The notes beneath the pieces were generated by a model. It worked only from the letters and a program-made list of their open reading frames with translations, was not told the origin of the DNA and searched no databases. The position numbers and the translations under genes were made by a program. 64,000 nt of DNA, taken from a phage. Numbering within the stretch: the first letter of the stretch is position 1; every line of letters starts with the position of its first letter. This document shows, piece by piece, positions 2,080 through 58,883 of this stretch. The stretch lies in sequence record PZ402305.1. One strand, written 5' to 3'.

Positions 2080-2108
2080 TTGACAAAAGTCACTTTAAAG
2101 TGTATTAT
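2080..2108 (+). promoter_or_regulatory. Sigma70-like promoter (TTGACA-N17-TATTAT) upstream of portal gene
   Basis: Consensus -35 hexamer at 2080-2085, 17-nt spacer, -10 at 2103-2108, in the 101-nt gap after the terminase stop. Confidence 0.5.
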
Positions 2109-2177
2109 AACTAGATAGGTGAGGTTGTATATAATACAGCCTTGCCTTAACGATTTTATACCTGACTGGAGGAACAA

Positions 2178-3743
2178 GTGTCAACAGGAAAAAGAACGTA
2201 CACTAAAAAGTCAGAATACTGGGACAAAGGTGCTGCAAATAAAGCTGCTCTCTCTCCAACAAAAGAGGCAGAGAAAGAGAAAACGTTACTCCTGTCACCT
2301 GAAATAGGAACGATCGGATTAAACTCAATCAAAGCATTTACGAATTTCATGCAACCTTATGAGACTCGTTTCCCAGAATGTATTCGCACTTTTAAAGAGA
2401 TGGGTGAAGACCCTGATGTAGCTACTGCTCTTGACGCTACATATATCTTTGTAGATAGAGCATTCTTTGATTTCAAGATAAAATACAATGTAAACTCGGC
2501 AAAGTCAAGAAAAGCTGCTAAGTTTATTGATTACATGCTGCGCAATATGCAAGCCCCTCTACGTCAATATGTTAGATCACTTTTGACATATAAGCAATAT
2601 GGTTTTGCATTTGCAGAGAAAGTTTATGAGTTGGATGAAGATCCTAAAAGTCCTTACTTTGGGTATTGGCGATTAACCAAACTGGCTTTTAGACCACAAG
2701 ACACTCTTTACATGGCTCAACCTTTTACATATTCGGCAGACGGACGTTCTATTCTATCTGTTAACCAGAATATCACCAATACGATGTTAGCTCCAGGCAA
2801 TACAACTTTAGAAACTGGTATTAAAGAAATTCCTTTCAGTAAAGTTTTATTTGTTGGTAGCAACATTACAGAGAATAACCCACTAGGAGTTAGTCCGCTT
2901 TTAGCTGTATATCGTAGCTGGCGTGAAAAATCTCTTATTCAGGAATTTGAGGTTATTGGGGTATCTAAAGATTTAGGTGGTATGCCAGTTCTTAAGGTTC
3001 CAAGTGACATTCTAAACAGGGCATCTTTAGATCCTGCTGGGGATGAAGCACAATCTCTTCGAGTTCTCCAAGCCAACATCGCTAACCTGCACTCTGGTGA
3101 GCAAGCCTACATGGTATTGCCTTCAGACGTTTATGAAGGCACAGTGATGCGTCAATACGATCTTGTATTCCAAGGTGTTGATGGCACGGGTAAACAGTTT
3201 GACACTCAAGCACTAATCAAACAACGCAAACTGGACATTTATAACCGCTTTGGTGCGGGTGTGTTGATTATGGGTGATGGTGATGCAGGAAGTTTTGCGC
3301 TTTCTGACAACAAACAAACACTATTGTCTCATTTTATTGAGCGAGATGTAGATATTGTTGTAGAAGCTATAAACTCTCAACTGATCCCTCAAACACTACG
3401 ACTAAACAATATCTTCCTTTCTGATGAAGATATGCCTAAGTTTGTCAGTGGTGAAATGGGTGATCCTGATATTGAAGTAAATGCTAAAGCTATTCAGCAG
3501 TTGGTAGCCTCTGGTGCAATACCTTTAACCCCAGAAGTTATTAACGAGTTCCTTGAAAAAATTGGTTTTGAATATCGCATCCCTGACGATATTGTTGCCA
3601 ATAAAGAGAAATTCTTTGAATTCATGGATAACTATATGCCTGACAAAACTTCACGATCAGGAGATGGTTTAGCTACAGCGGGAACTGGAACATCTGACAC
3701 TGTTTCTGCTTTAGATCCTTCAGCACAAAACCTGTCGAATTAA
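2178..3743 (+). CDS. Portal protein (putative)
   Basis: 521-aa ORF immediately downstream of terminase; GTG start preceded by GGAGG RBS; size and position typical of portal. Confidence 0.65.
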   Translation: MSTGKRTYTKKSEYWDKGAANKAALSPTKEAEKEKTLLLSPEIGTIGLNSIKAFTNFMQPYETRFPECIRTFKEMGEDPDVATALDATYIFVDRAFFDFKIKYNVNSAKSRKAAKFIDYMLRNMQAPLRQYVRSLLTYKQYGFAFAEKVYELDEDPKSPYFGYWRLTKLAFRPQDTLYMAQPFTYSADGRSILSVNQNITNTMLAPGNTTLETGIKEIPFSKVLFVGSNITENNPLGVSPLLAVYRSWREKSLIQEFEVIGVSKDLGGMPVLKVPSDILNRASLDPAGDEAQSLRVLQANIANLHSGEQAYMVLPSDVYEGTVMRQYDLVFQGVDGTGKQFDTQALIKQRKLDIYNRFGAGVLIMGDGDAGSFALSDNKQTLLSHFIERDVDIVVEAINSQLIPQTLRLNNIFLSDEDMPKFVSGEMGDPDIEVNAKAIQQLVASGAIPLTPEVINEFLEKIGFEYRIPDDIVANKEKFFEFMDNYMPDKTSRSGDGLATAGTGTSDTVSALDPSAQNLSN

Positions 3744-3771
3744 AAATATTTAATATTTTTTAATTTTTCTA

Positions 3772-3800
3772 TTGACAAAACAACAAATATCCTGTAGACT
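3772..3800 (+). promoter_or_regulatory. Sigma70-like promoter (TTGACA-N17-TAGACT) with AT-rich upstream element
   Basis: -35 at 3772-3777, -10 at 3795-3800 preceded by TG; AT-rich tract 3744-3771. Confidence 0.45.
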
Positions 3801-3836
3801 AAGATTTATGGGATATCTGTTTTTAAGAGGTTTCAA

Positions 3837-4316
3837 ATGGAACTCAATAAAGATACACTGTGGGAACTCTTCAAAACCTTCGCTGGTTTTAAAGAGAATT
3901 CTGAATCCCAACAAGATTCTATACCATCTCAAAAACCTGAAACTCTAGTCAAACAAAATAAATTTGATGAAGAAAAGATGCAGGTTATTGAGGTCTTGTA
4001 TTGTCCACCTGAAGAAGACGATCTCCACGGAGAGCGCATGTCTGATTTGGAAATCAGGAAGATGGTTGACAACTTCAATGAGAATATTACCAACATTAGT
4101 GGTAATCTTGGTCACATGAAGAACACCGATAAGTTTTCTCCAATTAAAGCTTGGGTAAATGAAGTCGATTGTTACATTGGTGACGAACTCGTTGTGGAAG
4201 GAACTCCCCTCGTTAAAATCCAATTCAACGACCCTGAATTATATCAAGCTCGTAAAGACGGCGTTCTTAAAGGTTTGAGTATAGGCGCAATGGGCGTTAA
4301 AGTCAAGAAGGACTAA
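3837..4316 (+). CDS. Hypothetical head-morphogenesis protein
   Basis: 159-aa ORF with AGAGG RBS between portal and scaffold-like gene. Confidence 0.6.
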   Translation: MELNKDTLWELFKTFAGFKENSESQQDSIPSQKPETLVKQNKFDEEKMQVIEVLYCPPEEDDLHGERMSDLEIRKMVDNFNENITNISGNLGHMKNTDKFSPIKAWVNEVDCYIGDELVVEGTPLVKIQFNDPELYQARKDGVLKGLSIGAMGVKVKKD

Positions 4317-4318
4317 TC

Positions 4319-5434
4319 GTGGCAAATACATATTTAACTAACGTAGACTTTTCTGGAAAAGCTACGGAAGAGTCACTAGGTGCTCATATTGCTTACACTT
4401 TTGATTTTCAAGGTGGAGCGGCATCTGGTTACAATACCCCCCTTTTATTTAAGTCAGACGGATCTCCAGACATAACTTTTGAAAAGTTAGAAGCTCTCAC
4501 TAAAATGGGAGAAGATGTTACAGAGTTACGTAAAAGCTATATTCAACAAGTGATGGATCGCATTTCTGAAAAAGTGCGTGAAAAATTTGAAGCTGGTTGG
4601 GATTGGGTTTACGTTATTGATGCTGACTTCGATGCGAACGTTGCAATTTTCTGTTCAGATAACGGTATGTTCTCTGTTGGCTTTAAAGTTGACGGACTGA
4701 ATGTTGAAGTTGAAGAGGTTGCTAAACCTGTTGTTCGTGTTACTGATTATCAAGTTGTTGATGGTGATGTAATGATCTCCATTGATTTCTTTGAGGACGT
4801 TTTAGACGATGCTTTGAGTAATCTCGTTAAGAGTTCCTTGAAACAAAGTCAAGTTAAAGATTATTTAGTGAAAGCTCACGCTAAAGCTAATACAAACTCT
4901 GTGGATGCAGAGGCTAACCCCGCAGGTGATAAATCTGCAAACACAACTGGAATCAATAAAGGAGAAACCCCTTTGGAAAATATCAACAAAGAAGAATTCC
5001 TGAAATCTGCTGAATTCCAAGAACTGATGAAAGCACAGATCGCTGAAGCTGTAGAAAAAGCAGCCGCAGATGCACGTGCAGCCGCAGAACTTGAAGCACA
5101 GGAAAAAATCGCTAAGGCAGAACAGGAAGCAGAAGAACTTCGTAAAGCTGAACAAGCTCGTATCGAAGAAGAATATACAACTGTTGTTAAATCCTATTCT
5201 TTCGTAGAAGAAGACAAAGTTGAAGCTCTCGTTAAATATCTGGTAGACAATAAAGATATCGCTGAAACTATCGTCAAAGCATTCGAAAAAGCACGTGCAG
5301 AAGTGGACGCAGTTAAGAAAGAATTTGGAACAGAACGTGGTGTTGACGTGATCAATACTCAACCTGTAGCTAAATCTTCTTCTGAACTGATTAGTCAGAA
5401 AGCTGCTGAACTTAAAAAAGCCCAGAAACAATAA
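4319..5434 (+). CDS. Scaffolding-like protein (putative)
   Basis: 371-aa acidic ORF with long Ala/Glu/Lys-rich coiled-coil-like C-terminal half (AEELRKAEQARIEEE); GTG start 2 nt after upstream stop; lies between portal and capsid genes. Confidence 0.5.
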   Translation: MANTYLTNVDFSGKATEESLGAHIAYTFDFQGGAASGYNTPLLFKSDGSPDITFEKLEALTKMGEDVTELRKSYIQQVMDRISEKVREKFEAGWDWVYVIDADFDANVAIFCSDNGMFSVGFKVDGLNVEVEEVAKPVVRVTDYQVVDGDVMISIDFFEDVLDDALSNLVKSSLKQSQVKDYLVKAHAKANTNSVDAEANPAGDKSANTTGINKGETPLENINKEEFLKSAEFQELMKAQIAEAVEKAAADARAAAELEAQEKIAKAEQEAEELRKAEQARIEEEYTTVVKSYSFVEEDKVEALVKYLVDNKDIAETIVKAFEKARAEVDAVKKEFGTERGVDVINTQPVAKSSSELISQKAAELKKAQKQ

Positions 5435-5453
5435 TCTTAGGAGATTAAATTAA

Positions 5454-5852
5454 ATGGCTAAAGGAATTACTTTATCTAACTCTCGCCAGGAATTCGGACA
5501 CCTGGTTCTGGGTGGAGTGTTTAGCTCTGACCTTGGACACTGTGTACGTGAAGTTAACCTGGTTAAAACAGCAACCATGAAAATTGGTTCTATCCTGAAA
5601 GCTGACAACACTGAAGCTGCTAAAGCTGAAGCTGCCGATGCTGCTAAAGTTCTGATTTGGACTGATGCTCTGTTCGGTATTGACGATGTAGCAGTAGGTG
5701 ACACTTTCACCGCAGTTGTTGGCGTACGTGATCTTACTCTGAACCGCTTTGCAGTATACTACAAAGATGGCTCCCTGGTAGATGACGCTGGCGTAGCAGC
5801 ACTGGAAACACATGATCTGAAACTGACCGAAAAAGTCGTTTTCACTTCTTAA
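5454..5852 (+). CDS. Head decoration-like / minor capsid protein (putative)
   Basis: 132-aa ORF immediately upstream of the major capsid gene; shares the RBS context TAGGAGATTAA with the capsid gene. Confidence 0.4.
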   Translation: MAKGITLSNSRQEFGHLVLGGVFSSDLGHCVREVNLVKTATMKIGSILKADNTEAAKAEAADAAKVLIWTDALFGIDDVAVGDTFTAVVGVRDLTLNRFAVYYKDGSLVDDAGVAALETHDLKLTEKVVFTS

Positions 5853-5873
5853 TTTTAATAGGAGATTAATATA

Positions 5874-6875
5874 ATGCCAGCAGTAATTTTAGATCAGGTT
5901 GTAGATTTCAGCCCTATGATCGAACTTCAGGATTCCCCTGATACACTGATTGCCAGCCTGAATCTGTTCAGTGTTGACTATCATTCAACTACCGCTATTG
6001 AAATCGGTAAAGAAAAAGCTGAAGATGCTCTGATCTCCGCTCGTGAGCGTGGTGGTGAGCGTAACTTCCTGACCATGAAAAATCCAGAACTGAAAGCGTT
6101 CCGCATTCCGTTCTTCCCTCTGGATAAAAACATCAAAGCCCAAGATATTCAATCTTTCCGTAGCTTTGCAATGGCAGGAATCAATGACTCTCTGCGCACA
6201 GACGCTGAAGTTGTTAACCGCTATATGTCCCAGATTCTGCGTGACGTAGCAAAAACCAAAGAGAAAATCTTTGCAGAAGCAGTTATGGGTCGTGCCTATA
6301 ACGGCGTAGGTGGTGCAGCTAACTCTGCATACAACTGGTATACCGAATGGGGTGCTACCCAGAAATCTGTTGCTGTAGACTTTGCTTCTACCACTGTTTC
6401 TCCAGCAGCCACTATCGAACAAGAAGCTCGTGCTTACATCATCGATACTAAACAAGATGGCTCTACCGCTACCCGTATCGTAGCTCTGTGTTCTCGTGAG
6501 TTTTTCGCATCTCTGGTTAACTCTCCATTTGTTCGCCAGGCATATCAGTATTTCCAGGGAACTCCTAACCTTCTGCGTGACCGCCTTAGCGGTAACATGG
6601 ATGTTCAGGTGTTCGAATGGAACGGTGTAACTTACATTGAAGATATCCACGGTAACATCCCTGCTGGTGAAGCATATGTTCTGCCTATGGGTATCGAAGG
6701 TATGTTCCAGGCGCACTACGCTCCTGCGGATACTCCAGAACTGGCTAACACCCAGGCTCGTGAACTGTATACCTTCATGATCAGCCAGCACCGCACTATT
6801 CAGCTTCAGTCTGAATTCTCGCTGCTCGCAGTTAACACCCGTCCAGAACTGGTAGTTAAACTGACTACGGCTTAA
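5874..6875 (+). CDS. Major capsid protein (lambda gpE-like)
   Basis: 333-aa ORF; C-terminal ...NTQAR... segment resembles lambda gpE family; strong RBS; followed by a strong intrinsic terminator. Confidence 0.7.
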   Translation: MPAVILDQVVDFSPMIELQDSPDTLIASLNLFSVDYHSTTAIEIGKEKAEDALISARERGGERNFLTMKNPELKAFRIPFFPLDKNIKAQDIQSFRSFAMAGINDSLRTDAEVVNRYMSQILRDVAKTKEKIFAEAVMGRAYNGVGGAANSAYNWYTEWGATQKSVAVDFASTTVSPAATIEQEARAYIIDTKQDGSTATRIVALCSREFFASLVNSPFVRQAYQYFQGTPNLLRDRLSGNMDVQVFEWNGVTYIEDIHGNIPAGEAYVLPMGIEGMFQAHYAPADTPELANTQARELYTFMISQHRTIQLQSEFSLLAVNTRPELVVKLTTA

Positions 6876-6895
6876 TAGAACTCTGTTAATATTAG

Positions 6896-6929
6896 AGGCT
6901 CGTCCGTGATGGGCGAGCCTTTTCTGTTT
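6896..6929 (+). terminator. Rho-independent terminator after major capsid gene
   Basis: 10-bp GC-rich stem (aggctcgtcc / gggcgagcct), 5-nt loop, then tttctgttt. Confidence 0.7.
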
Positions 6930-6959
6930 ACAATAAGAGTTTACAATGAGGAGATTGAT

Positions 6960-7304
6960 ATGTCAAACCCAGAATTGAAACGTTACTTTAGTTATCACGA
7001 AATGATTCGTGATTTCGAATCGCTTTCACCACTGATTGATGCTGATAAAACATTAGTATCTGCGCCACCAATGTCTTTCTATCTGAAAGATGGTCGTATT
7101 GCATTAGGTGGAAACTTCATTCACTTCCTCACACGTTTGAGAGAAGAAACAGGTATTCTTGTGCATCCTTTTGCAAGTGAAGAACACATGGGTTACTATC
7201 TTGTAAGTTACGAAGACTATTCGCCTGTAAAAATCAAAGAAGAAGTTTTAAAAGTAGAAGTGGTAGACACTCCAGCTAAAAAACGTTCCCTTCGTAAAAA
7301 ATAA
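6960..7304 (+). CDS. Hypothetical head-tail joining protein (start revised to ATG 6960)
   Basis: Track ORF 6906..7304 starts inside the terminator stem; in-frame ATG at 6960 has a GAGGAG RBS. Confidence 0.55.
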   Translation: MSNPELKRYFSYHEMIRDFESLSPLIDADKTLVSAPPMSFYLKDGRIALGGNFIHFLTRLREETGILVHPFASEEHMGYYLVSYEDYSPVKIKEEVLKVEVVDTPAKKRSLRKK

Positions 7305-7313
7305 GGTGGGCTT

Positions 7314-7862
7314 ATGCTGAATGCGGTAGAGTTGGCACCACTGATCCGAATTCTTGTTTATAACCCTTCTCAAGAAGTATTGCCAGATGCAATGCTGATT
7401 CAGATCATCCAAACTTGGATTGATATCATAGGGAATGAAGATAAGGATAAGTGTGCAGTATTGTGGAACAGCTTGATTTCTGTTTTAGAGTATTTATGGA
7501 ACAACGATGTTCTTAACAACAGTACTCAAACAGGAGGAGCTATGTCCCGCAGAGAAAAGATGGGTGAAGTCGAAGTTGAAGTTAAATTTAACAACGGTCA
7601 AGTCACTTATAAATCTCCGTGGGAAGATATCTATCATAACTATTTAAATGGTCTTATGGTGATCCCTGGGTGCACGGCAGGACGAGGAGCAACTAGCAAA
7701 GTTCTTATTGGCGGTGTGGATGCTCGTGAGATTGATCGAGTAAACAGCGATCCTAACTCTGTAAATGGTCTTGGTAATGTTGCAAGTGTTGATCGTAATA
7801 CACGCAACGTTAATTATTTGCGAAATTACGGACCTGTTTCTTTTTATCGTAGGGACAAATAA
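7314..7862 (+). CDS. Hypothetical neck/adaptor protein
   Basis: 182-aa ORF with AAGGTGG RBS in the head-tail connector region. Confidence 0.55.
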   Translation: MLNAVELAPLIRILVYNPSQEVLPDAMLIQIIQTWIDIIGNEDKDKCAVLWNSLISVLEYLWNNDVLNNSTQTGGAMSRREKMGEVEVEVKFNNGQVTYKSPWEDIYHNYLNGLMVIPGCTAGRGATSKVLIGGVDAREIDRVNSDPNSVNGLGNVASVDRNTRNVNYLRNYGPVSFYRRDK

Positions 7863-8350
7863 TGGAAAGTGAGATCTTACCAGGTGACGATACAGATTGG
7901 GAAACCATTATCAAAAAGATGATGGACCTTGAACAAGTTCAAATCGAAGCTGGTTTTTTAACAAACAAAAGGCATCCTGAATCAGATCTCACTATTCCTG
8001 CAATAGCAGCTATTCAACAATATGGTAATGAAACAAATAACATACCTGCTCGCCCTTTTATAACAGATGGTGCTGTTATCTCACAGAACAATATCGCTAA
8101 AAAGATGAAGCAGGTGTTTGCAAATTACTTAATGAATAATGTCGGGTTAGCTGTTTTTGAGCCTATAGCGAGAGCCTCTAGAGAAGGAATAGCTCAAGCG
8201 ATTGCAATGCAACGTTATCGTCCTTTATCTCCTGTGACAATTAAGATACGACAAGATAAAGGCAACTATTCTAATCATATCTTAATAGATACGGCACACA
8301 TGATAAATGCAATCGAAACAAAAATCACAAAAAGCAAGTCTAAAAAATAA
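7862..8350 (+). CDS. Hypothetical neck protein
   Basis: 162-aa ORF; TAATG start/stop overlap with upstream gene. Confidence 0.55.
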   Translation: MESEILPGDDTDWETIIKKMMDLEQVQIEAGFLTNKRHPESDLTIPAIAAIQQYGNETNNIPARPFITDGAVISQNNIAKKMKQVFANYLMNNVGLAVFEPIARASREGIAQAIAMQRYRPLSPVTIKIRQDKGNYSNHILIDTAHMINAIETKITKSKSKK

Positions 8351-8351
8351 C

Positions 8352-8380
8352 TTGCATAAACTTTGTTTTTGATGTATACT
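8352..8380 (+). promoter_or_regulatory. Sigma70-like promoter (TTGCAT-N17-TATACT)
   Basis: -35 at 8352-8357, -10 at 8375-8380 preceded by TG, followed by AGGAG RBS and GTG at 8396. Confidence 0.5.
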
Positions 8381-8395
8381 AAAAAGGAGATACAA

Positions 8396-8812
8396 GTGTT
8401 ACTAGATCAATTTACTCTCCTTGATCTAACTGAATACCAAGGTCGTAGACGAGTCTACAAAGAGGCCGTTGGTTCAGTTATTGCTAACTTAGAAAGTAGT
8501 GTAGAATATGAACCATTTACTATTGAAGCGGCAAGCTTACAACCGATATCTGGTAAAACACTGAATGCACTACCCGAAGGTTACAGATCTAAGGCTCAAT
8601 ATAGTTTCTGGACTAAAACAGAAATGAAGGGGTTACAACAAGGAACAGAACAGTTATCAGATCAAATATTGATAGATGGTAAATGGTATTCTGTTTATTC
8701 CCTTAAAGATTGGACCAGAACATCTTTCTTAGTCCATCATCATTGTGTTGCAATATTAGACGATCAAAACAACTCCTGGTCTTATGGAACAGAAGGAGGA
8801 AACTTTGGCTAA
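8396..8812 (+). CDS. Hypothetical tail-completion/neck protein (start revised to GTG 8396)
   Basis: Track ORF start 8363 lies inside the predicted promoter; in-frame GTG at 8396 has an AAGGAG RBS. Confidence 0.5.
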   Translation: MLLDQFTLLDLTEYQGRRRVYKEAVGSVIANLESSVEYEPFTIEAASLQPISGKTLNALPEGYRSKAQYSFWTKTEMKGLQQGTEQLSDQILIDGKWYSVYSLKDWTRTSFLVHHHCVAILDDQNNSWSYGTEGGNFG

Positions 8813-9443
8813 TATTTACCAACAAATAGAAGCATACGAAAATGCCATCTACTTAAATATAGGTGGCTTCCTTCAAGAATTAGTGGGGTTGCCAGTCTAT
8901 GTTATGGATAAGCCATTCATTAAACCGGATACTCCTTACCTAGCACTACGTATTATCACTTCCAGCGATTCTGGAGGTTGGTCTTACCGAAGCTCTATTC
9001 AAAATGATATGTATTCCTACGAGATGGATAATACCTACGAGATTGAACTTGTAGCCTATCGTGGAAGACCTACCACTTTGATGAGCTATGTTCTGGCTGC
9101 TCTCCGTGGTGCAGAGGAATTAAAATACAAACATCTCTATTCTAAAGGTCTTGGTTTTTTAGGAGCCTCCAATATAGCTCAAGCCAATACTATTGTAGAC
9201 GGAGATAAGACTGAATTAAGAGCGCGTATGGTTATGACGTTCAACACTCGTATGAGTATTGAAGATATTGCTACTACACCAATAGAAGCAATCAACATGC
9301 ACATCCGTTCATTCAGAGATAGTTACAATGATCCTATCCCTTTAGATTTAATTCTAAACAGGGTTTATGCAATTACTTTGGTTCCAGGCGAATACTCGTC
9401 AGTCAATCAAAATGGATCATTATTTAACAACCCTACCGAATAA
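8784..9443 (+). CDS. Hypothetical tail/neck protein
   Basis: 219-aa ORF overlapping upstream gene end by 29 nt; precedes sheath gene. Confidence 0.5.
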   Translation: MEQKEETLANIYQQIEAYENAIYLNIGGFLQELVGLPVYVMDKPFIKPDTPYLALRIITSSDSGGWSYRSSIQNDMYSYEMDNTYEIELVAYRGRPTTLMSYVLAALRGAEELKYKHLYSKGLGFLGASNIAQANTIVDGDKTELRARMVMTFNTRMSIEDIATTPIEAINMHIRSFRDSYNDPIPLDLILNRVYAITLVPGEYSSVNQNGSLFNNPTE

Positions 9444-9477
9444 ACTCATTGGAATTAAGTTTCTAACAGGAGCATAA

Positions 9478-50580: not shown

Positions 50581-50581
50581 T

Positions 50582-51103
50582 TTAACTCCCCTTTGGTAGA
50601 TAGAAACCATGCACTTTATCTCGATAAACAAGACGCATATCACGTTCCCAGTGTGTCCTTATATTCCGTTTCTTGAAGTATAGAGCACCTTTAGTAACAT
50701 CTAAAACAGACCGCAATTCAGGAAAATGTTTCTCTAAATAAAGTAAACGCTCCGCTATTGCTTTTGCTTCCTGCCACTTATCTTTCTCTGTTACGTTAAA
50801 AGTTTTCGCATATGAGAATTGCCCTTTCTGGAACAAGACTTCTCTGACTGTGTTAGGGAAGTAGGTATCATTTCTTCTGTTGATTACCACATTCCCAACG
50901 GCATTCATTCCTTTTTTACCCAGACCGCGACCTTCTGCGTAAATTGCACAAGCTAATAGAATTTTATCATTATATTGCTTTGTACATTTGTGAACTACTT
51001 TAGCGGTTTTTACGTTTGCAGCTTCGGCTTTCGCCACAACAGGTGTAAATGTAAAAGCAGTTAAGGATAGTAACGCAACTGTTACAAAGTTTTTTATCAG
51101 CAA
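50582..51103 (-). CDS. Secreted cell-wall hydrolase (SleB/Hydrolase_2-like), candidate endolysin
   Basis: 173-aa ORF; N-terminal signal peptide (MLIKNFVTVALLSLTAFTFTPVVAKA); CAIYAEGRG motif resembling SleB-type hydrolases; TTG start with AAGGAGG RBS and own promoter. Confidence 0.5.
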   Translation of the reverse strand: MLIKNFVTVALLSLTAFTFTPVVAKAEAANVKTAKVVHKCTKQYNDKILLACAIYAEGRGLGKKGMNAVGNVVINRRNDTYFPNTVREVLFQKGQFSYAKTFNVTEKDKWQEAKAIAERLLYLEKHFPELRSVLDVTKGALYFKKRNIRTHWERDMRLVYRDKVHGFYLPKGS

Positions 51104-51135
51104 ATTTTGCCTCCTTTTTAAGTTAACGAATTTCT

Positions 51136-51164
51136 AGTATAACACGATAGAGGCTTTATTGCAA
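51136..51164 (-). promoter_or_regulatory. Sigma70-like promoter (TTGCAA-N17-TATACT, TG-extended) for the hydrolase gene
   Basis: -35 at 51159-51164 and -10 at 51136-51141 on minus strand; about 25-nt leader with RBS. Confidence 0.55.
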
Positions 51165-51184
51165 GAGGGGGATTTCTCCCCCTC
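51165..51184 (-). terminator. Terminator-like hairpin after TerD gene
   Basis: Minus-strand gaggggg-agaaau-cccccuc stem-loop 20 nt after the TerD stop; U-tract weak. Confidence 0.4.
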
Positions 51185-51202
51185 AAAATCATTTGTTAAT
51201 TA

Positions 51203-51805
51203 TTATGGACATTCATACCATTCTTTTTTACCACCGAAGGCCATCACCACATCACAAATATCCAGACCAGCTTTGCCTACACCATATGCTTTCAGCTTCC
51301 ATTCCCCATCTTCACGAACCAAGGAAGCCACGTGGCAGATTGTGTTGCCAGCTACTTCAGGAGCCAGGAAGTCAAAATCCAGAATTTCCACATTGCGCTC
51401 GGAGTCGAAGATTTTAAGCATACCTTCAGAAGCATGACCAAAACGTTTCAGACCTGTATCATCATCAATGGTCAGAACAAAGGCAATCTCTTGTGCATCA
51501 GGAGAGATTTTAGCCAGAGTAATATCAATCTGCTCCATGCTGCCAGTTCCATCACGAACATCGTCACCAGCGAAGGTAGAACGTTCAGGATCAAACTTGT
51601 TAGCATAGCAAACCAGATGACGTGCAGACAGCATTTCAGGATTGCCAGCGGCATTGTGACGACAAACCAGTGCACTTACATCCAGATCCAGTTTAGAATC
51701 AGATTTCCAAGAGAATTCCAGGCGCAGTTCTTTCAGAGCCGGAGCAACCTTCTTCAGGGAAATTTTTTCGCTAGAGCCTTTTTTCAGGGAAATTTTATCA
51801 GTCAT
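51203..51805 (-). CDS. terD: TerD-family protein (tellurite-resistance/stress response TerD domain)
   Basis: 200-aa ORF; collinear with TerD proteins: N-terminal ISLKK repeats, LDLDVSALV, FVLTIDDD and C-terminal GEWKLKAYGVGKAGL. Confidence 0.8.
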   Translation of the reverse strand: MTDKISLKKGSSEKISLKKVAPALKELRLEFSWKSDSKLDLDVSALVCRHNAAGNPEMLSARHLVCYANKFDPERSTFAGDDVRDGTGSMEQIDITLAKISPDAQEIAFVLTIDDDTGLKRFGHASEGMLKIFDSERNVEILDFDFLAPEVAGNTICHVASLVREDGEWKLKAYGVGKAGLDICDVVMAFGGKKEWYECP

Positions 51806-51820
51806 CTTTTGTCTCCTCTA

Positions 51821-52090
51821 TTATTTAAGTGTAATACCAGTTACAGTCAATTCTACTTCCAAAAGCTTAGATGTGTTTTGGATTGATACTAATTGTGCAT
51901 GATGGTTTAGTTCTACAGCAGAATAATCATTTTCCCCATCATCTACTTTTAAATAAACAATAATTTCACTAAGGTCTAAACCATTTTCGTCAAATGCATT
52001 TTCATAGACGAAAGTATCTCCTACATCCAAATCTTTAATAGTAAGGCATCGTTTATTTACTTTTTGCTCATCAATTTCGAAGTTTAACAC
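51821..52090 (-). CDS. Small protein, paralog B of a duplicated ~90-aa family
   Basis: 89-aa ORF, GTG start with AGGAGG RBS; shares DLDVGxTF ... GLD ... TxTGITLK with 53112..53390. Confidence 0.55.
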   Translation of the reverse strand: MLNFEIDEQKVNKRCLTIKDLDVGDTFVYENAFDENGLDLSEIIVYLKVDDGENDYSAVELNHHAQLVSIQNTSKLLEVELTVTGITLK

Positions 52091-52319
52091 TTCTTCCTCC
52101 TAATGTTATCTCCGGTTTGTATATACGAAGAATTATAGCATTTTCATTTTCTTTGTCAACCCATTCTTCATAATCAGGCCATACATGAATCTCTACTCTA
52201 CTTACAATATCTTCCATTCGCACAGTCCCAATGAAATACTCTTTGAGACTGCGCATAATGAAAGCTTCTCTCTCACGCCAATAATTTTCTATGACTTGAG
52301 AGGCAAGCTCGTCGATCAT
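52071..52319 (-). CDS. Hypothetical small protein
   Basis: 82-aa ORF; start overlaps vWA stop (ATGA). Confidence 0.45.
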   Translation of the reverse strand: MIDELASQVIENYWREREAFIMRSLKEYFIGTVRMEDIVSRVEIHVWPDYEEWVDKENENAIILRIYKPEITLGGRSVKLRN

Positions 52320-53110
52320 TTTTTAGCACCTACTTTAACAACCCACTCTCCGAACTCTTCAGATAAGAGTTTGTCATAAAGCTCTGAATCTGTCAAGTCT
52401 AAATCTTTAATGCCAATAAAACCAACATTATCATAAGCATTTGCCAGTTCTTTCAGGAAGCCAAACTTCTCATTACCAACGCCAACCATGAACCAATAAA
52501 TAGGTTTATTCTTATTCTCTTCGATAAGACGACGAACAGCACTAGGATCACCATTCTCACCATCAGTCTGGAAGAATACAACACCAGGGGTAACGTCAGA
52601 ACCTGGTTCAGATACAGCTACAACTTTTTCACGCTCTACAGACACTGTTTCAGTTTTACCAAGCAGACGATTAAAGAAGCCTTTCTTTGGAGCCTCCTCT
52701 TGTACCACTTGTTTAGTGGTAATATATTTAGTAACAGTGCCAAAATACTCATCGTAGATATCCGCCATTACAGGGGCGTAATTTGTTCCACCTCCGATAC
52801 GAACATTACGCATACATTTACCAACATAGTCATCGTAAACATCTGCTGTTGCTGGAGTAAGCTCTTGGGAACTCGTATTGAAGGCCCACATATCAATTTG
52901 TTGATTATCGTCGAACAGCATACCAAAAGGAAGCAGTTTACCTACAAAATCACTCACTACCCCACTAGAATATAGACCATGCATACTACCAGAAATATCT
53001 AGAGCACATGCTACACGAAGAACAATCTTACCTTCATTCAGGTTCTTATTCTTTTTCAGAGAGAAAGCAAGGTTTTCTTGACGTTTTTTCAGGCTGATTT
53101 TCTCGGACAT
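52316..53110 (-). CDS. vWA-domain protein (TerY/TerF-like) with TerD-like N-terminal ISLKK motif
   Basis: 264-aa ORF; MIDAS motif DISGSM at start of a vWA-like domain; N-terminus MSEKISLKK mirrors the TerD N-terminus; AAGGAG RBS. Confidence 0.65.
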   Translation of the reverse strand: MSEKISLKKRQENLAFSLKKNKNLNEGKIVLRVACALDISGSMHGLYSSGVVSDFVGKLLPFGMLFDDNQQIDMWAFNTSSQELTPATADVYDDYVGKCMRNVRIGGGTNYAPVMADIYDEYFGTVTKYITTKQVVQEEAPKKGFFNRLLGKTETVSVEREKVVAVSEPGSDVTPGVVFFQTDGENGDPSAVRRLIEENKNKPIYWFMVGVGNEKFGFLKELANAYDNVGFIGIKDLDLTDSELYDKLLSEEFGEWVVKVGAKK

Positions 53111-53111
53111 A

Positions 53112-53390
53112 TTATTTCTCCTTCTTAAGTGTAATATTGGTAACTTCTAAATCTACTTCCACCATATTTGTATCTGGTGGGATGCAATGAGTATAGCCTC
53201 GTTGTGCTAGTGATCCATTAATACAGATCGCACTGTTTGTGGAATTTTTAATGAACACCAAGTTACGGTAGGTATCCAACCCTGCGTCTTCATAGGCATC
53301 ATAATACATGAATGTGGCCCCTACGTCAAGATCTTCGAAAGCAATAGGTAAATCCTGACTTTTTTCTTCTTGAATATTGAATCTAAACAC
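53112..53390 (-). CDS. Small protein, paralog A of duplicated family (start revised to internal GTG)
   Basis: Internal GTG at 53390 has a GAGGAGG RBS and aligns with the start of paralog B; track start 53456 lacks an RBS. Confidence 0.5.
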   Translation of the reverse strand: MFRFNIQEEKSQDLPIAFEDLDVGATFMYYDAYEDAGLDTYRNLVFIKNSTNSAICINGSLAQRGYTHCIPPDTNMVEVDLEVTNITLKKEK

Positions 53391-53946
53391 GCATACCTCC
53401 TCTACCAATTTTGAAGCCCAAATCGTAAGCTTCCTTAGTGATCTTTTGTAACTCACTTATAGGAAGTGTTACAAGAGGATCATCTTCTTCAATTTCCATC
53501 TTGTCATCTTCTGTTTCAATGAGAGTATTATGCACTTTGTGATAAGGGTTGTCAACACGTTTAAACTTATTCTTTTCTGTGCTGAAAAAACAATCTGGAT
53601 CTTCTTCACCATCACCCCAACCTTGGTTAGGATCTCCGTCAGATTGTTCTGTAGGGATTTCACCTGTAAAGTACTCTTCCAGCACCATAGCGATACCGTC
53701 CCTTGGATTTGAGGAATGCATCAAATCACAAACCTTACTCCAATCCATAGCCCATTCGAACCGTTCACGAACGCCGTTTTCATCCTCCTTTCCAGAGAAA
53801 ACACAACCATAACTATCATAGTTGCCATACATCTCTTCAATAACAACACCGTCCTTCAAAAGAAAGAGATAACAAGGCGATCCGTCGAAAGAAGTAGAAA
53901 GGGCAGCTTTGCCCGATTCTTTGCACAAAAAGCTAAAACAACCCAT
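53383..53946 (-). CDS. Hypothetical acidic protein
   Basis: 187-aa ORF within the Ter-like block; start overlaps upstream stop. Confidence 0.5.
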   Translation of the reverse strand: MGCFSFLCKESGKAALSTSFDGSPCYLFLLKDGVVIEEMYGNYDSYGCVFSGKEDENGVRERFEWAMDWSKVCDLMHSSNPRDGIAMVLEEYFTGEIPTEQSDGDPNQGWGDGEEDPDCFFSTEKNKFKRVDNPYHKVHNTLIETEDDKMEIEEDDPLVTLPISELQKITKEAYDLGFKIGRGGMRV

Positions 53947-54149
53947 TACAAACCCTCCTTCAGATTATCAAGAGCTACAGTGGTTTCACAAAAGTCTCCA
54001 TAAGTTTTATGATGTTCCAGAAAAGCTTCGGGTCCACCCCAGTCATTATCTTGTGTATTCCAGCCATCAATAAAAGCATCTTCAATGATTGTGATCAGTT
54101 CTTGTCGGGTTAACTGGATAATATTAGGATCGTTATCGTAGTTAAACAT
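53946..54149 (-). CDS. Hypothetical small protein
   Basis: 67-aa ORF; ATG overlaps the stop of the upstream micro-ORF. Confidence 0.45.
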   Translation of the reverse strand: MFNYDNDPNIIQLTRQELITIIEDAFIDGWNTQDNDWGGPEAFLEHHKTYGDFCETTVALDNLKEGL

Positions 54150-54315
54150 CCTCTTCCTCCTCTAAAATATGGAACCCGTAATTACAATAGTCCTGAAAGG
54201 TTTCGTGCGCAAGATCTTCTATATCCTCTTGAGACATATCATCTTCAATTTCGATATCCACAACCTCATTGCATCCACACCAAGCAGTTTCAATATTCAC
54301 TCGTAATATTTTCAT
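54142..54315 (-). CDS. Hypothetical small acidic protein (57 aa; shorter than the ORF track's 60-aa cut-off)
   Basis: ATG overlaps upstream stop (TAATG) and follows a GAGGAGGAG RBS; its stop overlaps the next start. Confidence 0.4.
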   Translation of the reverse strand: MKILRVNIETAWCGCNEVVDIEIEDDMSQEDIEDLAHETFQDYCNYGFHILEEEEDV

Positions 54316-54509
54316 TACTCCTCCTCATTGAAGTCAATATCTGCAAGGAGTTCGAATTTACGGAAGTTACGACAACCTTCATAAATATAACAATCACGAC
54401 AAACTGCTAGAACACTTGGGGGATATATGCCTCCCATCGGTGCGAATCGTTTTTCGTCATCATAACGGACACCAATGTCTTCATCAATTATATAGATACG
54501 GATTCTCAT
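54315..54509 (-). CDS. Hypothetical small protein
   Basis: 64-aa ORF; start overlaps TelA-like stop. Confidence 0.45.
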   Translation of the reverse strand: MRIRIYIIDEDIGVRYDDEKRFAPMGGIYPPSVLAVCRDCYIYEGCRNFRKFELLADIDFNEEE

Positions 54510-55618
54510 TTACCAAGCCCTCGTTTCACAGCAGCTACCATCCCGTCTTCCAGAGATTGAACTTCATTAATATAATCAACACGAGCAGCACGGGCTTCCG
54601 TATTGATGCGGTTAGTTTCTTCCAGCATCTTAACCAAGTTTTCCTGATCGTGACGCAGAGTTTCAATATCCAACACTTGACGGTTAGCCAGTGCTGCTGC
54701 TTCGATCTGATTCTGTGTGGCAAGATCGCTACCCAGTTTAATTGCCAGGTTAAATTCATCAAGAACGTTATTCTGCGTCTCTGCTGCTTTCATTTGACGT
54801 AAGCTCTCGATATACATTGAGAAGTTAGCAGAGTAAGCAGGAATAACATTATTTACTATGTTACGCGCAGATCGCATTAAGCTTGCAGAAACTTTTTGCA
54901 TACCTTGTACACGCGGTCCCATTTGGACACACAGTAGGCGCAATGCTTTTAAATCTGCAATACGAATCTCCAGAAGATCCAAAGTATCTCGGATCACTTG
55001 TCGCTGTTCTACTGCATCTTCTGGAAGAGCAGCCAAAGCTTGTTCTTCTTTTTCATAGGTTGCTGTTAGAAGCTGCATATCTCGGTTCAAACTTGCAGCA
55101 TATTGTCCAATAGCTTGATGTAGCTTTTCAAGATATACCAAGGAATCTTCTTCTTTGCGAATATCCATTTGAAGGTTCTTTACCAACTCTTCAATACGGT
55201 TATTAACATTATCAAACTCCCCAAACAGGTCTTCTTTCATACCCATAACTTTTTTAATGAGTTTAGTAATACCCTTGCTTTGTTTAATAGAGTTTGGATC
55301 AAGTTGTTTTGCCTGTTTAATCAAAGCTGTGAGTCGTTCACTCATCTGATCGCCTTGATTACTACGTTGATGTTTTAATACCTCGGCATTCAAGGAACGC
55401 AAGGTTGTTCCTGCCTCTGCCCCAATCTCTTCGATCTCTTGTCGGGTCATAGAAGGCAAAACTGGAACTTCTTGCGGTGCCGCTGGTGCATAAACAGGAC
55501 TGGCATCTAACACGCTTGGAGCGAATACAGATTTACTTGCATCTGTTGTTGCAGCAAATACGCTCATTTCAGGCTTCTTCTGACCACCAGTAGCTGCTTT
55601 TAAAAATGGACTTGTCAT
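54506..55618 (-). CDS. TelA-like (toxic anion resistance / KlaB-like) protein, putative
   Basis: 370-aa largely alpha-helical, Gln/Leu/Glu-rich ORF of TelA-typical size, between TerD/vWA and TerC genes; call rests mainly on context. Confidence 0.4.
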   Translation of the reverse strand: MTSPFLKAATGGQKKPEMSVFAATTDASKSVFAPSVLDASPVYAPAAPQEVPVLPSMTRQEIEEIGAEAGTTLRSLNAEVLKHQRSNQGDQMSERLTALIKQAKQLDPNSIKQSKGITKLIKKVMGMKEDLFGEFDNVNNRIEELVKNLQMDIRKEEDSLVYLEKLHQAIGQYAASLNRDMQLLTATYEKEEQALAALPEDAVEQRQVIRDTLDLLEIRIADLKALRLLCVQMGPRVQGMQKVSASLMRSARNIVNNVIPAYSANFSMYIESLRQMKAAETQNNVLDEFNLAIKLGSDLATQNQIEAAALANRQVLDIETLRHDQENLVKMLEETNRINTEARAARVDYINEVQSLEDGMVAAVKRGLGK

Positions 55619-56205
55619 TCTTCATTCTCCTCTTCTGCATCTCTTATATATGGTGAAACACCGTACTCTTTAGCTACTTTAACCCAATCGTCCCATTTAT
55701 ACAACCATAATTTTCCTTCGGTCCCTTCTTTATCTGATTTCAACCACATATTAGGTTGCTTACCTGGGTACATGCGATTAGGTTTACGATTATAACCTCT
55801 AACACATCTTGTCGCAAACCTATCTACCAGAACAAGAACATATTTATACTCGTGGTTCAACGGCTCTTTGGAAGTGGCTTTAGGATTAGCCCCTAATTCT
55901 GCTGCCAGTTTTTGCCAATGAGCACCGTGCCTACTAAACTTACCCATACAACCATCAATAGCATGAGCAATTTCGTGCTTCATTGTATCCACGATCATAT
56001 CTCTTGTGGAGTTCTTATGCAAGTGCCAATTTACAACAACAATTTTATCTCGGTAGTTGCACCAACCGAAAGAGTTATTCACTTTGTTTCTAACACAAGC
56101 TTTATATCCTGCTTCACGTAACATGTTGTAGTAAACAGGAAAATCTTCTTTTATTTCCTGCATCACTTCCCACCACAAGAGTTGCAAGTCTCTCTCGGTA
56201 TGCAT
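55615..56205 (-). CDS. SprT-like zinc metallopeptidase (putative)
   Basis: 196-aa ORF with HEIAH (HExxH) zinc-binding motif and a downstream His. Confidence 0.45.
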   Translation of the reverse strand: MHTERDLQLLWWEVMQEIKEDFPVYYNMLREAGYKACVRNKVNNSFGWCNYRDKIVVVNWHLHKNSTRDMIVDTMKHEIAHAIDGCMGKFSRHGAHWQKLAAELGANPKATSKEPLNHEYKYVLVLVDRFATRCVRGYNRKPNRMYPGKQPNMWLKSDKEGTEGKLWLYKWDDWVKVAKEYGVSPYIRDAEEENEE

Positions 56206-56208
56206 AAC

Positions 56209-56802
56209 TTACACCTTAAAAGTGAAATGCGTGGTCGTGGCTTCAAAATCAGGACCAGATAAACGTGCACTGAAATCTGAAATATTTGTAATTAAAAAGC
56301 TTTTATGCATACCTAACACAGCCACGCTTTCAATATCTTCTACTAACATTTCAATCATGTTAGAAACATGGCTGAACGTAGAGTTTTGTTTTTTGATGGT
56401 GTAGAAAGAAAGATTCCCACCTGCTGTATAAGATACCTCTTCAAAATCTTTAATCGTATATTGTGTGCCATCAGTAAAGAAAATGGTAGCTTTATTCGTA
56501 GCACGTTTCTTGTTTTTTGGTCCTTTTTTACGTTTACTGCGAGTAGGCAAACCGTTTGGGAACACCATAGCTACAAATTCTTCAGCAGAAACCTCCTTAC
56601 CGAAATCATAACCATAAGAGACAGCATCTATAAACTCGTCATCTTCATTTTTAAAATAATGGAAATAGGGCCAATTTGAAAGATTATCAAGCATCTTATG
56701 CTCGTCCACAGCAGAGAATGTATCCCTCAAAGCGCGTGTGATTTGCAAAGCATTAGGCAACCTTTTAACACCTACGATGGAAGTACGAATAGAAATTGTC
56801 AT
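56209..56802 (-). CDS. Hypothetical protein
   Basis: 197-aa ORF with AAGGAG RBS; Lys-rich central segment. Confidence 0.5.
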   Translation of the reverse strand: MTISIRTSIVGVKRLPNALQITRALRDTFSAVDEHKMLDNLSNWPYFHYFKNEDDEFIDAVSYGYDFGKEVSAEEFVAMVFPNGLPTRSKRKKGPKNKKRATNKATIFFTDGTQYTIKDFEEVSYTAGGNLSFYTIKKQNSTFSHVSNMIEMLVEDIESVAVLGMHKSFLITNISDFSARLSGPDFEATTTHFTFKV

Positions 56803-56816
56803 TGTTTTTCTCCTTA

Positions 56817-57254
56817 TTAACGTCGCTTGCTACGAGATGAACTCTTTTTACTTAAAGGGCTATTGTAAGATTTACGAGTTGTATAGCTACTATTTGTTTT
56901 AAAAGTTTGTCTCGGCTTTTCATAAGTTTTTATCTCTGGCTTAGGCTTACCATAAAAATTAGTTTTCGGTTTAGGTGTGTTATAATGTTTATTAATAATC
57001 GTTCTGTTATCGTTATAATCCCCGCTGCTACGATTACTACCGCCACTCATCATATGCCCTAACAACATACCTGTAGCAAACTCACCAACACCGCTACTAC
57101 TAGAACCGCCACCATTGTTGATAATAGTTGTATCTCCGTCAGATCCTTGTTGAGCGTATTGTTGAGGAGGTTGTTGGTATTGTGCAGGATTTGTTTCATC
57201 CTCGCAAGCTGTTAAAAAGATACAGCCAATTAAAATCAGGGCTAGTTTTTTCAT
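56817..57254 (-). CDS. Lipoprotein (start revised to ATG 57254)
   Basis: Signal peptide MKKLALILIGCIFLTAC with lipobox LTAC; internal ATG has GAGGA RBS; mature part Gln/Pro/Gly/Ser-rich. Confidence 0.5.
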   Translation of the reverse strand: MKKLALILIGCIFLTACEDETNPAQYQQPPQQYAQQGSDGDTTIINNGGGSSSSGVGEFATGMLLGHMMSGGSNRSSGDYNDNRTIINKHYNTPKPKTNFYGKPKPEIKTYEKPRQTFKTNSSYTTRKSYNSPLSKKSSSRSKRR

Positions 57255-57441
57255 ATTTGCTTTCCTCATTTTGACTATTAATACATCTGTGTTTGAAATC
57301 TCCAGAGAAGCAATAAAGTTGCTCTCCATCTCGGTATAAACTCACTTTACTGCCGTTGATTACGCTTGTCAATACAAAAATTACAACAAACAACCCTATT
57401 GCAAAACAAATATTTTCAAACACAATCAACAAGTATTTCAT
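57196..57441 (-). CDS. Small membrane protein (uncertain)
   Basis: 81-aa ORF with N-terminal hydrophobic helix; ATGA coupling to upstream gene; 3' end overlaps the lipoprotein start. Confidence 0.3.
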   Translation of the reverse strand: MKYLLIVFENICFAIGLFVVIFVLTSVINGSKVSLYRDGEQLYCFSGDFKHRCINSQNEESKYEKTSPDFNWLYLFNSLRG

Positions 57442-57788
57442 TTTAAAAATACCTCATCATCAGTTTCATTATCCCAGAAGAACAAATCCCAACCATTCGG
57501 ATCATTCCATTTGGCTGCTGGAGAAGTCCATATTTGTTCGATATCAATATTCAAAACTTCACCGTTTCGTTTTGAAACAGCTTTAGTTAATTCCCAACGA
57601 GATACAGGCTCTACTTCCCCTGAACCACTCCCACAACAAGCTACCACGTTAGGAGGCAAATTAATTGGATCTTTGGTCACGATCATAACGCTTACCCCAG
57701 GGTAAACTTTTGAAAGATAATCTAAAACGTAATCCACATCACCAGATAAATCCCAAACAAGTTCTTGAATTTCATCAAAATTATTCAT
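57438..57788 (-). CDS. Hypothetical acidic protein
   Basis: 116-aa ORF with AGGAGAG RBS just after the TerC terminator. Confidence 0.5.
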   Translation of the reverse strand: MNNFDEIQELVWDLSGDVDYVLDYLSKVYPGVSVMIVTKDPINLPPNVVACCGSGSGEVEPVSRWELTKAVSKRNGEVLNIDIEQIWTSPAAKWNDPNGWDLFFWDNETDDEVFLK

Positions 57789-57799
57789 AAGTCTCTCCT

Positions 57800-57824
57800 A
57801 TAAAATAGCCTCCCGAAGGAGGCT
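57800..57824 (-). terminator. Rho-independent terminator after TerC gene
   Basis: Minus-strand agccucc-uucg-ggaggcu stem-loop followed by AUUUUAU. Confidence 0.6.
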
Positions 57825-57830
57825 CATCTA

Positions 57831-58805
57831 TTAAACAGCAGCTTCTTCTTTTTCAGGGAAGATAAAGCTTGCAATAACACCAAGAGCTAATGTGCCTAGA
57901 ACAATCATCAGACTTACGTTAGGGGAAATATCATGCGGGAGGAATGACCACTTGGCATGAAGTGTTTCACCGAACGGGTGATACATAAGTTTAGCACCGA
58001 CAAATACCAGAACCACAGCAACAGCTTTCTCTAAGTGAACCAGATATTTCACAGCCACACTTAACACAAAGAAAAGTGCACGTAAACCAAGAACAGCCAT
58101 CAGCATTGCAGAATAAACTAGCAGAGGTTCTTGTGTCACACCGATCACAGCCGGAACTGAATCAAAAGAGAAGACAATATCTGTAAGCTCAATAACAAAC
58201 ACACAAAGAAGAGCAGGAGTTGCATATTTAATACCATTCTTAATGGTGATGAACTTTTCACCATCCAGTGCATTGTGCACAGGCAGAACTTTACCTACTA
58301 AACGAACAGCCCAATGCTTAGAGTAATCAATATCCTCTTCTTCGTCACCACCTTTGATGATAGCCACGGCAGACCAAGCTACAATCAAACCGAACAACAC
58401 TTGGACCGACCAATGAAGGTTAAACAAAGCGGTCCCTGCTGCAACAAAAATACCTCGGAAGACAATGGCTCCTGCAATTCCCCAAAGTAAAATCTTATGT
58501 TGGAGATGTGTGCTCTTAATTCCAAAGCTTGCAAAAATTGCCATGAACACCATCAGGTTATCTACAGAAAGACTCTTTTCCAACACATAGCCACTTAGGA
58601 AAAGCGCGGCAAACTCTTTACCATGTTCTACCCAAATGAATGCGTAATATCCTAAAGCTAAAGCAATCCAAAAAACAGACCAAAGCAAAGCAGATTTAAT
58701 TCCAATTTCTTTATTCTCTTTATGACCAAAGAAATCAATACCAATAGACAATGCTAAAATACCAACTAAAACAACTACATCAATAATGGGGAAACCAAGT
58801 TGCAT
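57831..58805 (-). CDS. terC: TerC-family integral membrane protein
   Basis: 324-aa ORF with multiple TM helices and the TerC-family signature EKSLSVDN. Confidence 0.75.
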   Translation of the reverse strand: MQLGFPIIDVVVLVGILALSIGIDFFGHKENKEIGIKSALLWSVFWIALALGYYAFIWVEHGKEFAALFLSGYVLEKSLSVDNLMVFMAIFASFGIKSTHLQHKILLWGIAGAIVFRGIFVAAGTALFNLHWSVQVLFGLIVAWSAVAIIKGGDEEEDIDYSKHWAVRLVGKVLPVHNALDGEKFITIKNGIKYATPALLCVFVIELTDIVFSFDSVPAVIGVTQEPLLVYSAMLMAVLGLRALFFVLSVAVKYLVHLEKAVAVVLVFVGAKLMYHPFGETLHAKWSFLPHDISPNVSLMIVLGTLALGVIASFIFPEKEEAAV

Positions 58806-58824
58806 TATTTTCTCCTTTCTCTTT

Positions 58825-58843
58825 GCGGGGAACCACTCCCCGC
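58825..58843 (-). promoter_or_regulatory. 5' leader stem-loop upstream of TerC start
   Basis: gcgggga-guggu-uccccgc hairpin between predicted -10 and the AAGGAG RBS. Confidence 0.3.
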
Positions 58844-58855
58844 CTCATGTGATAC

Positions 58856-58883
58856 ATCTTACTCTATTCTAAAACTTTGTCAA
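58856..58883 (-). promoter_or_regulatory. Sigma70-like promoter (TTGACA-N16-TAAGAT) dedicated to TerC
   Basis: -35 at 58878-58883 and -10 at 58856-58861 on minus strand, 50-nt leader to ATG at 58805. Confidence 0.5.

Follow-up and report, generated by a model that had tools for sequence, protein, structure and literature searches.

Phapecoctaviruses are ~150-kb myoviruses of Escherichia coli within the Stephanstirmvirinae, kin to phi92 and more distantly to rV5. In rV5, 33 sigma-70-like promoters have been reported genome-wide, the late region included (Kropinski et al. 2013, PMC3606486). The authors of that study found no homologues of gp33, gp45 or gp55, pointed out a candidate anti-sigma protein resembling Srd, and inferred, much as an earlier note on the DNA studied here did, that polymerase reprogramming in the style of T4 may not occur (PMC3606486). 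A second described system is that of the PeSLs of T4-type phages, which are intergenic cassettes that combine an AT-rich tract and a strong sigma-70-like promoter with a Shine-Dalgarno sequence and a stem-loop whose position varies, upstream of the -10, overlapping it or downstream; their promoters are active, and the cassettes mediate gene shuffling (Arbiol et al. 2010, PMC2839356; Comeau et al. 2014, PMC4122927). In this work, we characterized putative promoters in a stretch of 64,000 nucleotides from the phage sequence record PZ402305.1, referred to here as the window, which was assigned to Phapecoctavirus by megablast and is 99% identical to phAPEC8, vB_EcoM_01, nieznany and others. The sites studied resemble the promoters of rV5 and phAPEC8 (NC_020079) in belonging to the same lineage (rV5/phi92/phAPEC8), in having the form TTGACA-N15-18-TAnnnT, often with an extended -10, and in the spread of such promoters over early, replication and late regions. 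Unlike the earlier reports, the present analysis adds a comparative footprint.

According to the layout of open reading frames (ORFs) and the phAPEC8 annotation, the window consists of a structural module on the + strand (1-38113), encoding the large terminase, portal, protease/scaffold/capsid, neck, sheath, tube, tape measure, baseplate and fibres, and a replication/accessory module on the - strand (38177-64000), encoding DNA polymerase I, primase/helicase, four glycosyltransferases, endolysin, TerD/TerC-like proteins and anaerobic ribonucleotide reductase. An earlier note on this DNA had listed seven promoters, and reading the sequence directly located all of them at exactly the positions given, each intergenic and on the same strand as the gene downstream. 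On the + strand these are the putative promoters of the portal gene (2080-2108, TTGACA-17-TATTAT), of the prohead protease/scaffold/capsid operon (3772-3800, TTGACA-17-TAGACT, with an AT-rich tract upstream), of the neck/minor head gene 8396-8812 (8352-8380, TTGCAT-17-TATACT, the weakest of the set), and of the baseplate/fibre operon (14218-14247, TTGACA-18-TGnTACAAT). On the - strand, one site follows the primase/helicase gene (44608-44636, TTGACA-17-TATACT), one precedes the endolysin gene (51136-51164, TTGCAA-17-TGnTATACT), and one is of the early class (58856-58883, TTGACA-16-TAAGAT). Each site is named below by the first position of its -35. With a probability that we put at about 0.82, the comparisons described below indicate that the seven sites are ordinary sigma-70 promoters, read by the E. 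coli RNA polymerase holoenzyme at operon boundaries. The central proposal of the earlier note, that promoters of the host (sigma-70) type occur in the structural and the replication/accessory modules alike, is thereby upheld, and the sites are conserved in the way that sigma-70 contacts predict. Its further proposal, a largely unmodified host polymerase or a factor that mimics sigma-70, goes beyond what the sequence evidence addresses. Several of its details needed revision. The -10 consensus that it gave, TA(T/C)A(C/A)T, describes four of the seven boxes and fails for the other three. The TG that it placed just upstream of the -10 is a canonical TGn only at 14218 and 51164; at 2080, 3772 and 8352 the TG directly adjoins the hexamer and is shifted by one base from the canonical position, and none is present at 44636 or 58883.

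To define the background against which these motifs stand, intergenic DNA was delimited with hand-curated gene coordinates, which gave 19 regions totalling 1660 bp, or 2.6% of the window, with 35% GC. Since three of the seven sites escape the earlier strict consensus, a relaxed pattern (TTGACA/TTGCAW-N16-18-TAnnnT) was used together with a position weight matrix. The relaxed pattern yielded nine matches in the sense strand of the intergenic regions (5.4 per kb) versus 0.21 per kb elsewhere, a 25-fold difference (Fisher p=7e-10), and no match on the antisense strand of the same regions. Dinucleotide-preserving shuffles of the intergenic regions gave an expectation of 0.10 matches, and none of 5000 shuffles reached nine. 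With the position weight matrix, 8 of the 30 best matches over both strands (128 kb) fell in sense-strand intergenic DNA, which makes up 1.3% of the searched strand. Promoters were found in nearly every sizeable intergenic gap and in every case on the coding strand. Against the concern raised in the earlier note that such motifs might be equally frequent within coding sequence, strong matches cluster on the sense strand of intergenic DNA. Applied to the reconstructed genome of phAPEC8, the relaxed motif gave 41 intergenic-sense and 2 intergenic-antisense matches, spanning the early, tRNA, structural and replication blocks, in agreement with the 33 promoters of this type described in rV5. A chance origin of the sites, as random matches in AT-rich DNA between genes, could be argued from the low GC content of this DNA and from a loose 9-of-12 consensus that was no commoner than in shuffles (48 versus 51.3 expected, positions 1-20000). 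The same consensus gave 71 matches versus 51.9 expected in 38001-58000, and counting at this level of looseness is uninformative. The composition-matched shuffles, the empty antisense strand and the base-specific conservation across lineages refute a chance origin, to which we assign practically no weight.

The conservation of the sites was analyzed at orthologous junctions in phi92 (76% nucleotide identity) and in IMG/VR contigs obtained with portal, baseplate-protein and endolysin queries, the hexamers of the relatives being picked by eye in alignments anchored on the flanking genes. Three further sites of the window, at 39511, 57372 and 52159, were included and are described below. Pooled over sites, the -35 was identical at 143 of 150 positions (95%), positions 1, 2 and 6 of the -10 at 75 of 75 (100%), and positions 3-5 of the -10 at 56%, versus 67% for the spacer sequence (contact bases versus spacer, Fisher p about 1e-20). 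Spacer length was constant across lineages at seven of nine sites; at 2080 and 14218 it was either 17 or 18 nt. The -35, the T-A-x-x-x-T of the -10 and, where present, the TGn are kept at nine of the ten sites, while the sequence of the spacer is replaced. Fixed hexamers around a drifting spacer are the profile to be expected from contacts of sigma-70 regions 2 and 4, and they point to purifying selection on the bases that sigma-70 would contact: TTGACA, T-12, A-11 and T-7, and TGn where the -35 is weak.

The pattern is clearest at the endolysin promoter, 51164, where TTGCAA-17-TGnTAxAxT is present in five lineages with divergent spacers and a strictly conserved TGn. The window carries TTGCAA, spacer TAAAGCCTCTATCGTGT and TATACT; phi92 has TTGCAA, AACAGCCTCTTCTGTGT and TACAAT, with one spacer base different in contigs L035 and L036; L037 and L038 have TTGCAA, AATCCTCCCTCCTGTGA and TAGAAT; L039 has TTGCAA, AATCCTCCCTCCTGTGG and TAGAAT; and L040 has TTGCAA, AAACGCCTCTCATGTGT and TATACT. 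At 2080, the -35 is invariant in six lineages and the -10 keeps TAxxxT next to a diverged spacer, and at 3772 the hexamers are kept in five distinct sequence variants, one of which reads TAGAAT. At 8352, TTGCAW and TATACT are conserved and the 5' half of the spacer is variable. TTGACA-18-TGnTAxxxT occurs at 14218 in three lineages with unrelated spacers, and a lineage whose downstream protein is 54% identical has TTTACT-17-TGnTATGAT at this position. No recognisable promoter was found upstream of the homologue of gene 14307 in more distant relatives (57% identity; L019-L029), so that conservation at 14218 is confined to the closer genera and the one 54%-identity lineage. At 58883, phi92 and L038 keep TTGACT-16-TAxAGT. 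The gene downstream of 44636 is absent from the relatives, and this site was compared by position only, not by alignment; the corresponding junction in L040, the nearest other lineage, has a hairpin and TTGACT-18-TGnTACCCT with a different gene behind it. As in the extended -10 promoters of E. coli, TGn is kept across lineages at 51164, where the -35 (TTGCAA) is weak, and at 39511; the out-of-register TG of 2080, 3772 and 8352 sets these three sites apart from that class.

The three further sites all lie on the - strand. The first, 39482-39511 (TTGACA-18-TGnTAGGAT), is conserved in L040 and phi92, with a -35 of TTGACA in the window and phi92 and TTGACT in L040, and with TGn in all three. The ATG of gene 39081-39473 comes 9 nt after its -10, and the -10 box TAGGAT holds the only Shine-Dalgarno-like AGGA of this gene, an arrangement that is equally tight in phi92. 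Transcripts from this promoter could be near-leaderless, as judged from these distances. The second, 57344-57372 (TTGACA-17-TAAAGT), lies in a 108-nt AT-rich gap and is kept in L040, though the downstream protein is only 46% identical. The third, 52132-52159 (TTGACA-16-TGnTATAAT), matches the consensus at 12 of 12 positions and ranks first with the position weight matrix; it is located in coding sequence, in the 3' end of gene 52071-52319, with gene 51821-52090 starting 41 nt downstream, and both of its hexamers are kept in L040 despite a diverged spacer and proteins that are only about 40% identical. Taken together, the ten sites of the window have TTGACA as -35 in eight cases and TTGCAA or TTGCAT in two, a -10 with T-12, A-11 and T-7 in all ten, and a spacer of 17 +/- 1 bp (16 nt at two sites, 17 nt at six, 18 nt at two).

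Several observations weigh against ordinary sigma-70 promoters as the full explanation. One is some ascertainment bias that the choice of hexamers by eye brings into the pooled identities. Site 8352 is a weak match (TTGCAT, rank 57 with the position weight matrix) in a gap of 45 nt, and the conservation in this gap could come partly from the stop codon and the ribosome-binding site. At 3772, about 45 nt are nearly invariant in all lineages, more conserved than the flanking coding DNA; this conservation extends well past the hexamers and points to another function that shares the same DNA. Strong sigma-70 promoters before late genes leave temporal control unexplained. Finally, the literature search returned no transcriptomics or 5'-end mapping for Phapecoctavirus, Vequintavirinae or Stephanstirmvirinae.

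Structural genes normally need delayed expression, and the four + strand sites (2080, 3772, 8352 and 14218) might instead be regulated late promoters, dependent on a modified host polymerase, on a phage activator or anti-sigma switch, or on a sigma-70-like phage factor. The nearly invariant block at 3772, with an inverted repeat over the -10, could be an operator for a protein, and the Srd-like candidate reported for rV5 (PMC3606486) would suit such a switch. However, the -35 and -10 elements of the late region are complete and indistinguishable from those of the replication region. The phAPEC8 annotation (whole genome) and the 56-130 kb part of phi92 name no sigma factor, activator or RNA polymerase, a comparison of product names only, made with no proteome-wide domain scan; the simplest reading is therefore that the phage uses the polymerase of its host. 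Among ten small proteins encoded beside the promoters, Pfam recognised only TerD and no transcription factor domain. The 64 kb of the window do not include the early genome region, in which modifiers of the polymerase would be expected.

A T4-type late promoter has TATAAATA at the -10 and depends on gp55, gp33 and gp45. This motif occurs five times in the window versus 4.5 expected, and none of the matches listed lies in an intergenic gap. The putative 'late' motif of rV5, TGGTAAAATA, occurs 14 times versus 9.3 expected and is not enriched, with none of the matches listed in a + strand gap. Inspection of the table in the rV5 paper (PMC3606486) showed that this motif amounts to an extended -10 (TGnTAAAAT), with a -35 in some instances. 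No alternative class of late promoter is visible in the window. The presence of four promoters in a late block of 38 kb is uninformative as to timing, and we regard specially regulated late promoters as an unlikely explanation of the + strand sites.

If the sites are host-type promoters, those on the + strand would each start transcription anew for one segment of the structural module (the portal, the protease-to-capsid genes, the genes from neck to tail tube, and those from baseplate to fibres), and those on the - strand would serve the replication, accessory and endolysin genes. Hairpins accompany six of the seven listed sites, all but 8352. Several of the promoters would form composite units with a hairpin or terminator upstream (14218, 44636, 51164), over the -10 (3772) or in the leader (2080, 14218, 58883). 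In such a unit, transcripts arriving from upstream would be terminated or attenuated, transcription would begin again at a set level, and the 5' end of the new transcript would perhaps be stabilised.

The claim of the earlier note that several promoters sit right after intrinsic terminators and form insulated units held for two to three sites only. It is clean for 14218, which is preceded by the intrinsic terminator after the tape-measure gene (14182-14209, +; hairpin and T6), annotated as such in phAPEC8. It is plausible for 44636, which follows a GC hairpin, GGGCTTCGGCCC, and TTTTATT (44653-44668, -; -8.9 kcal/mol), a terminator-like element that fails a strict terminator rule. The strong hairpin that touches the -35 of 51164 (51165-51184, -; -16.9 kcal/mol, z=-3.7) has no U-run and shows compensatory changes in relatives. 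The other four sites follow no terminator.

Leader hairpins were identified downstream of three promoters. The portal mRNA would begin with one at 2117-2147 (+; -20.8 kcal/mol, z=-4.0), and relatives have a hairpin of other sequence at the same place. The hairpin after 14218 (14257-14277, +) is weak (z=-0.5), and a different hairpin in phi92 has z=-3.8. The hairpin after 58883, GCGGGGAGTGGTTCCCCGC (58825-58843, -; -14.3 kcal/mol, z=-3.2), has compensatory variants in phi92 and L038. The structure of the leader hairpins is under selection, because relatives have hairpins of entirely different sequence at the corresponding places. Rfam contained no family for any of the leader hairpins. At 3772, the hairpin covers the spacer and the -10 and is followed by TTTTT (3782-3821, +; -13.7 kcal/mol, z=-2.5), which looks like a composite terminator/promoter. 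Transcripts coming from the portal gene would hold both arms of this hairpin and those started at 3772 only the 3' arm. The invariance of the ~45 nt is compatible with two constraints acting on one stretch of DNA, and the block might be a promoter nested in a terminator or an operator for a protein. A hairpin over the -35 of 8352 (8334-8355) was dropped since it is not conserved in phi92.

The frequency of these hairpins raises the possibility that the blocks are kept mainly for another role, as terminators or attenuators, as elements that stabilise or process mRNA or as recombination cassettes of the PeSL type, with promoter activity secondary or absent. In line with such a role, the record of ASO2A labels the portal leader hairpin (2117-2159) a terminator, the hairpin at 58843-58825 is one of at least ten copies of a repeat labelled 'PHIRE promoters' in phAPEC8, and T4-type PeSLs combine exactly such parts and mediate gene shuffling. 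Yet hairpin sequences are swapped wholesale between lineages and the hexamers stay fixed, which argues for selection on the hexamers themselves. PeSL promoters are active, so that a second role would add to promoter function and not replace it. As a replacement for sigma-70 promoters, we consider this explanation very improbable.

The record of phAPEC8 lists 20-mer 'PHIRE promoters' in the early region, ten of which we extracted with their flanks (556-575, 937-956, 1787-1806, 3202-3221 and within 143712-147561). All ten 20-mers correspond to a conserved hairpin, TAGGGCGGCAATGGTGCCGC or GCGGGAATAGTTCCCGC, and are preceded at a distance of ~8 nt by the -10 of a promoter of the sigma-70 type with an A-rich upstream tract. 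The family has at least ten copies in phAPEC8 and one in the window, at 58825-58843, where the layout of 58883 is alike. From this arrangement, the PHIRE 20-mers appear to be leader hairpins of PeSL-like cassettes, not promoters.

A promoter with an adjacent stem-loop and an AT-rich tract in intergenic DNA, as in PeSLs, is found at 58883, with the hairpin in the leader, at 3772, with the hairpin over the -10, and at 14218, 44636 and 51164, with the hairpin upstream. Site 58883 and the early-region repeats of phAPEC8 have the PeSL layout, and the other four are terminator-plus-promoter variants. In contrast to the T4-type PeSLs, these elements belong to another phage family, the repeated hairpin is present in a single copy in the window, and the hairpins of the late region have unique sequences that form no repeat family. 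Recombination, mini-circles and a tie to gene insertions and deletions are known for the T4-type PeSLs, whereas the likeness here is one of layout. In phi92, an extra small gene (gp183; L007, 14047-14295) lies directly upstream of the cassette equivalent to 58883 (compared with position 58887 of the window), and this gene is a single hint of a gene insertion beside a cassette. Our tentative suggestion, which we hold to be possible and nearer to doubtful than to probable, is that the Stephanstirmvirinae carry PeSL-like mobile cassettes, composed of a sigma-70 promoter and a conserved hairpin, outside the T4 lineage, that the PHIRE 20-mers are their leader hairpins, and that late units nest a promoter in a terminator and give segment-wise control.

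Other features of the window were noted during the analysis. The portal ORF has a GTG at 2178 (+), with a GGAGG ribosome-binding site 6 nt upstream, and aligns with the portal protein of phi92 from residue 1; in phAPEC8 the start is annotated later, at the equivalent of position 2292 of the window. The product of gene 3837-4316 (+) is called 'DNA methyltransferase' in RefSeq and XkdF-like serine protease or head maturation protease in other records, and the protease label suits it because the gene lies between portal and scaffold. The tailspike region (23326-26172, +) is unlike that of phAPEC8: here it comprises an ORF of 688 aa and three small ORFs, and its counterpart is an endo-N-acetylneuraminidase-like protein of 921 aa. 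The difference is probably a swap of a host-range cassette. GC-rich hairpins, with or without U-runs, are also present in gaps that hold no promoter (10852-10897, 25393-25461, 33311-33371, 35397-35437, 40693-40741 and 57789-57830), and probably represent partial terminators or attenuators behind genes with high expression, for example those for sheath and fibres.

Six 'host dependent promoters (MEME)' are annotated in the phAPEC8 record, two of which are the equivalents of 44636 and 58883; sites 2080, 3772, 8352, 14218 and 51164 are unannotated in phAPEC8 and ASO2A. Genome-wide sigma-70 promoters and the accompanying inference about the polymerase were published for this group with rV5 in 2013; the present finding is sound and ordinary, and the unannotated sites are further instances, not a new kind of element. 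The analysis yields a comparatively validated map of ten promoters and their hairpins over 64 kb of a phage type that is common in therapy collections, a map useful for annotation, engineering and the design of transcript-mapping experiments. The view of transcription in this phage group is unchanged, and how late genes are timed behind strong host-type promoters is a question that was raised for rV5 already in 2013. If PeSL-like cassettes do occur in the Stephanstirmvirinae, nested units such as 3772 would stop upstream transcripts and let local starts escape, and the dosage or timing of the structural genes would be controlled segment by segment, with no need of a phage sigma factor.

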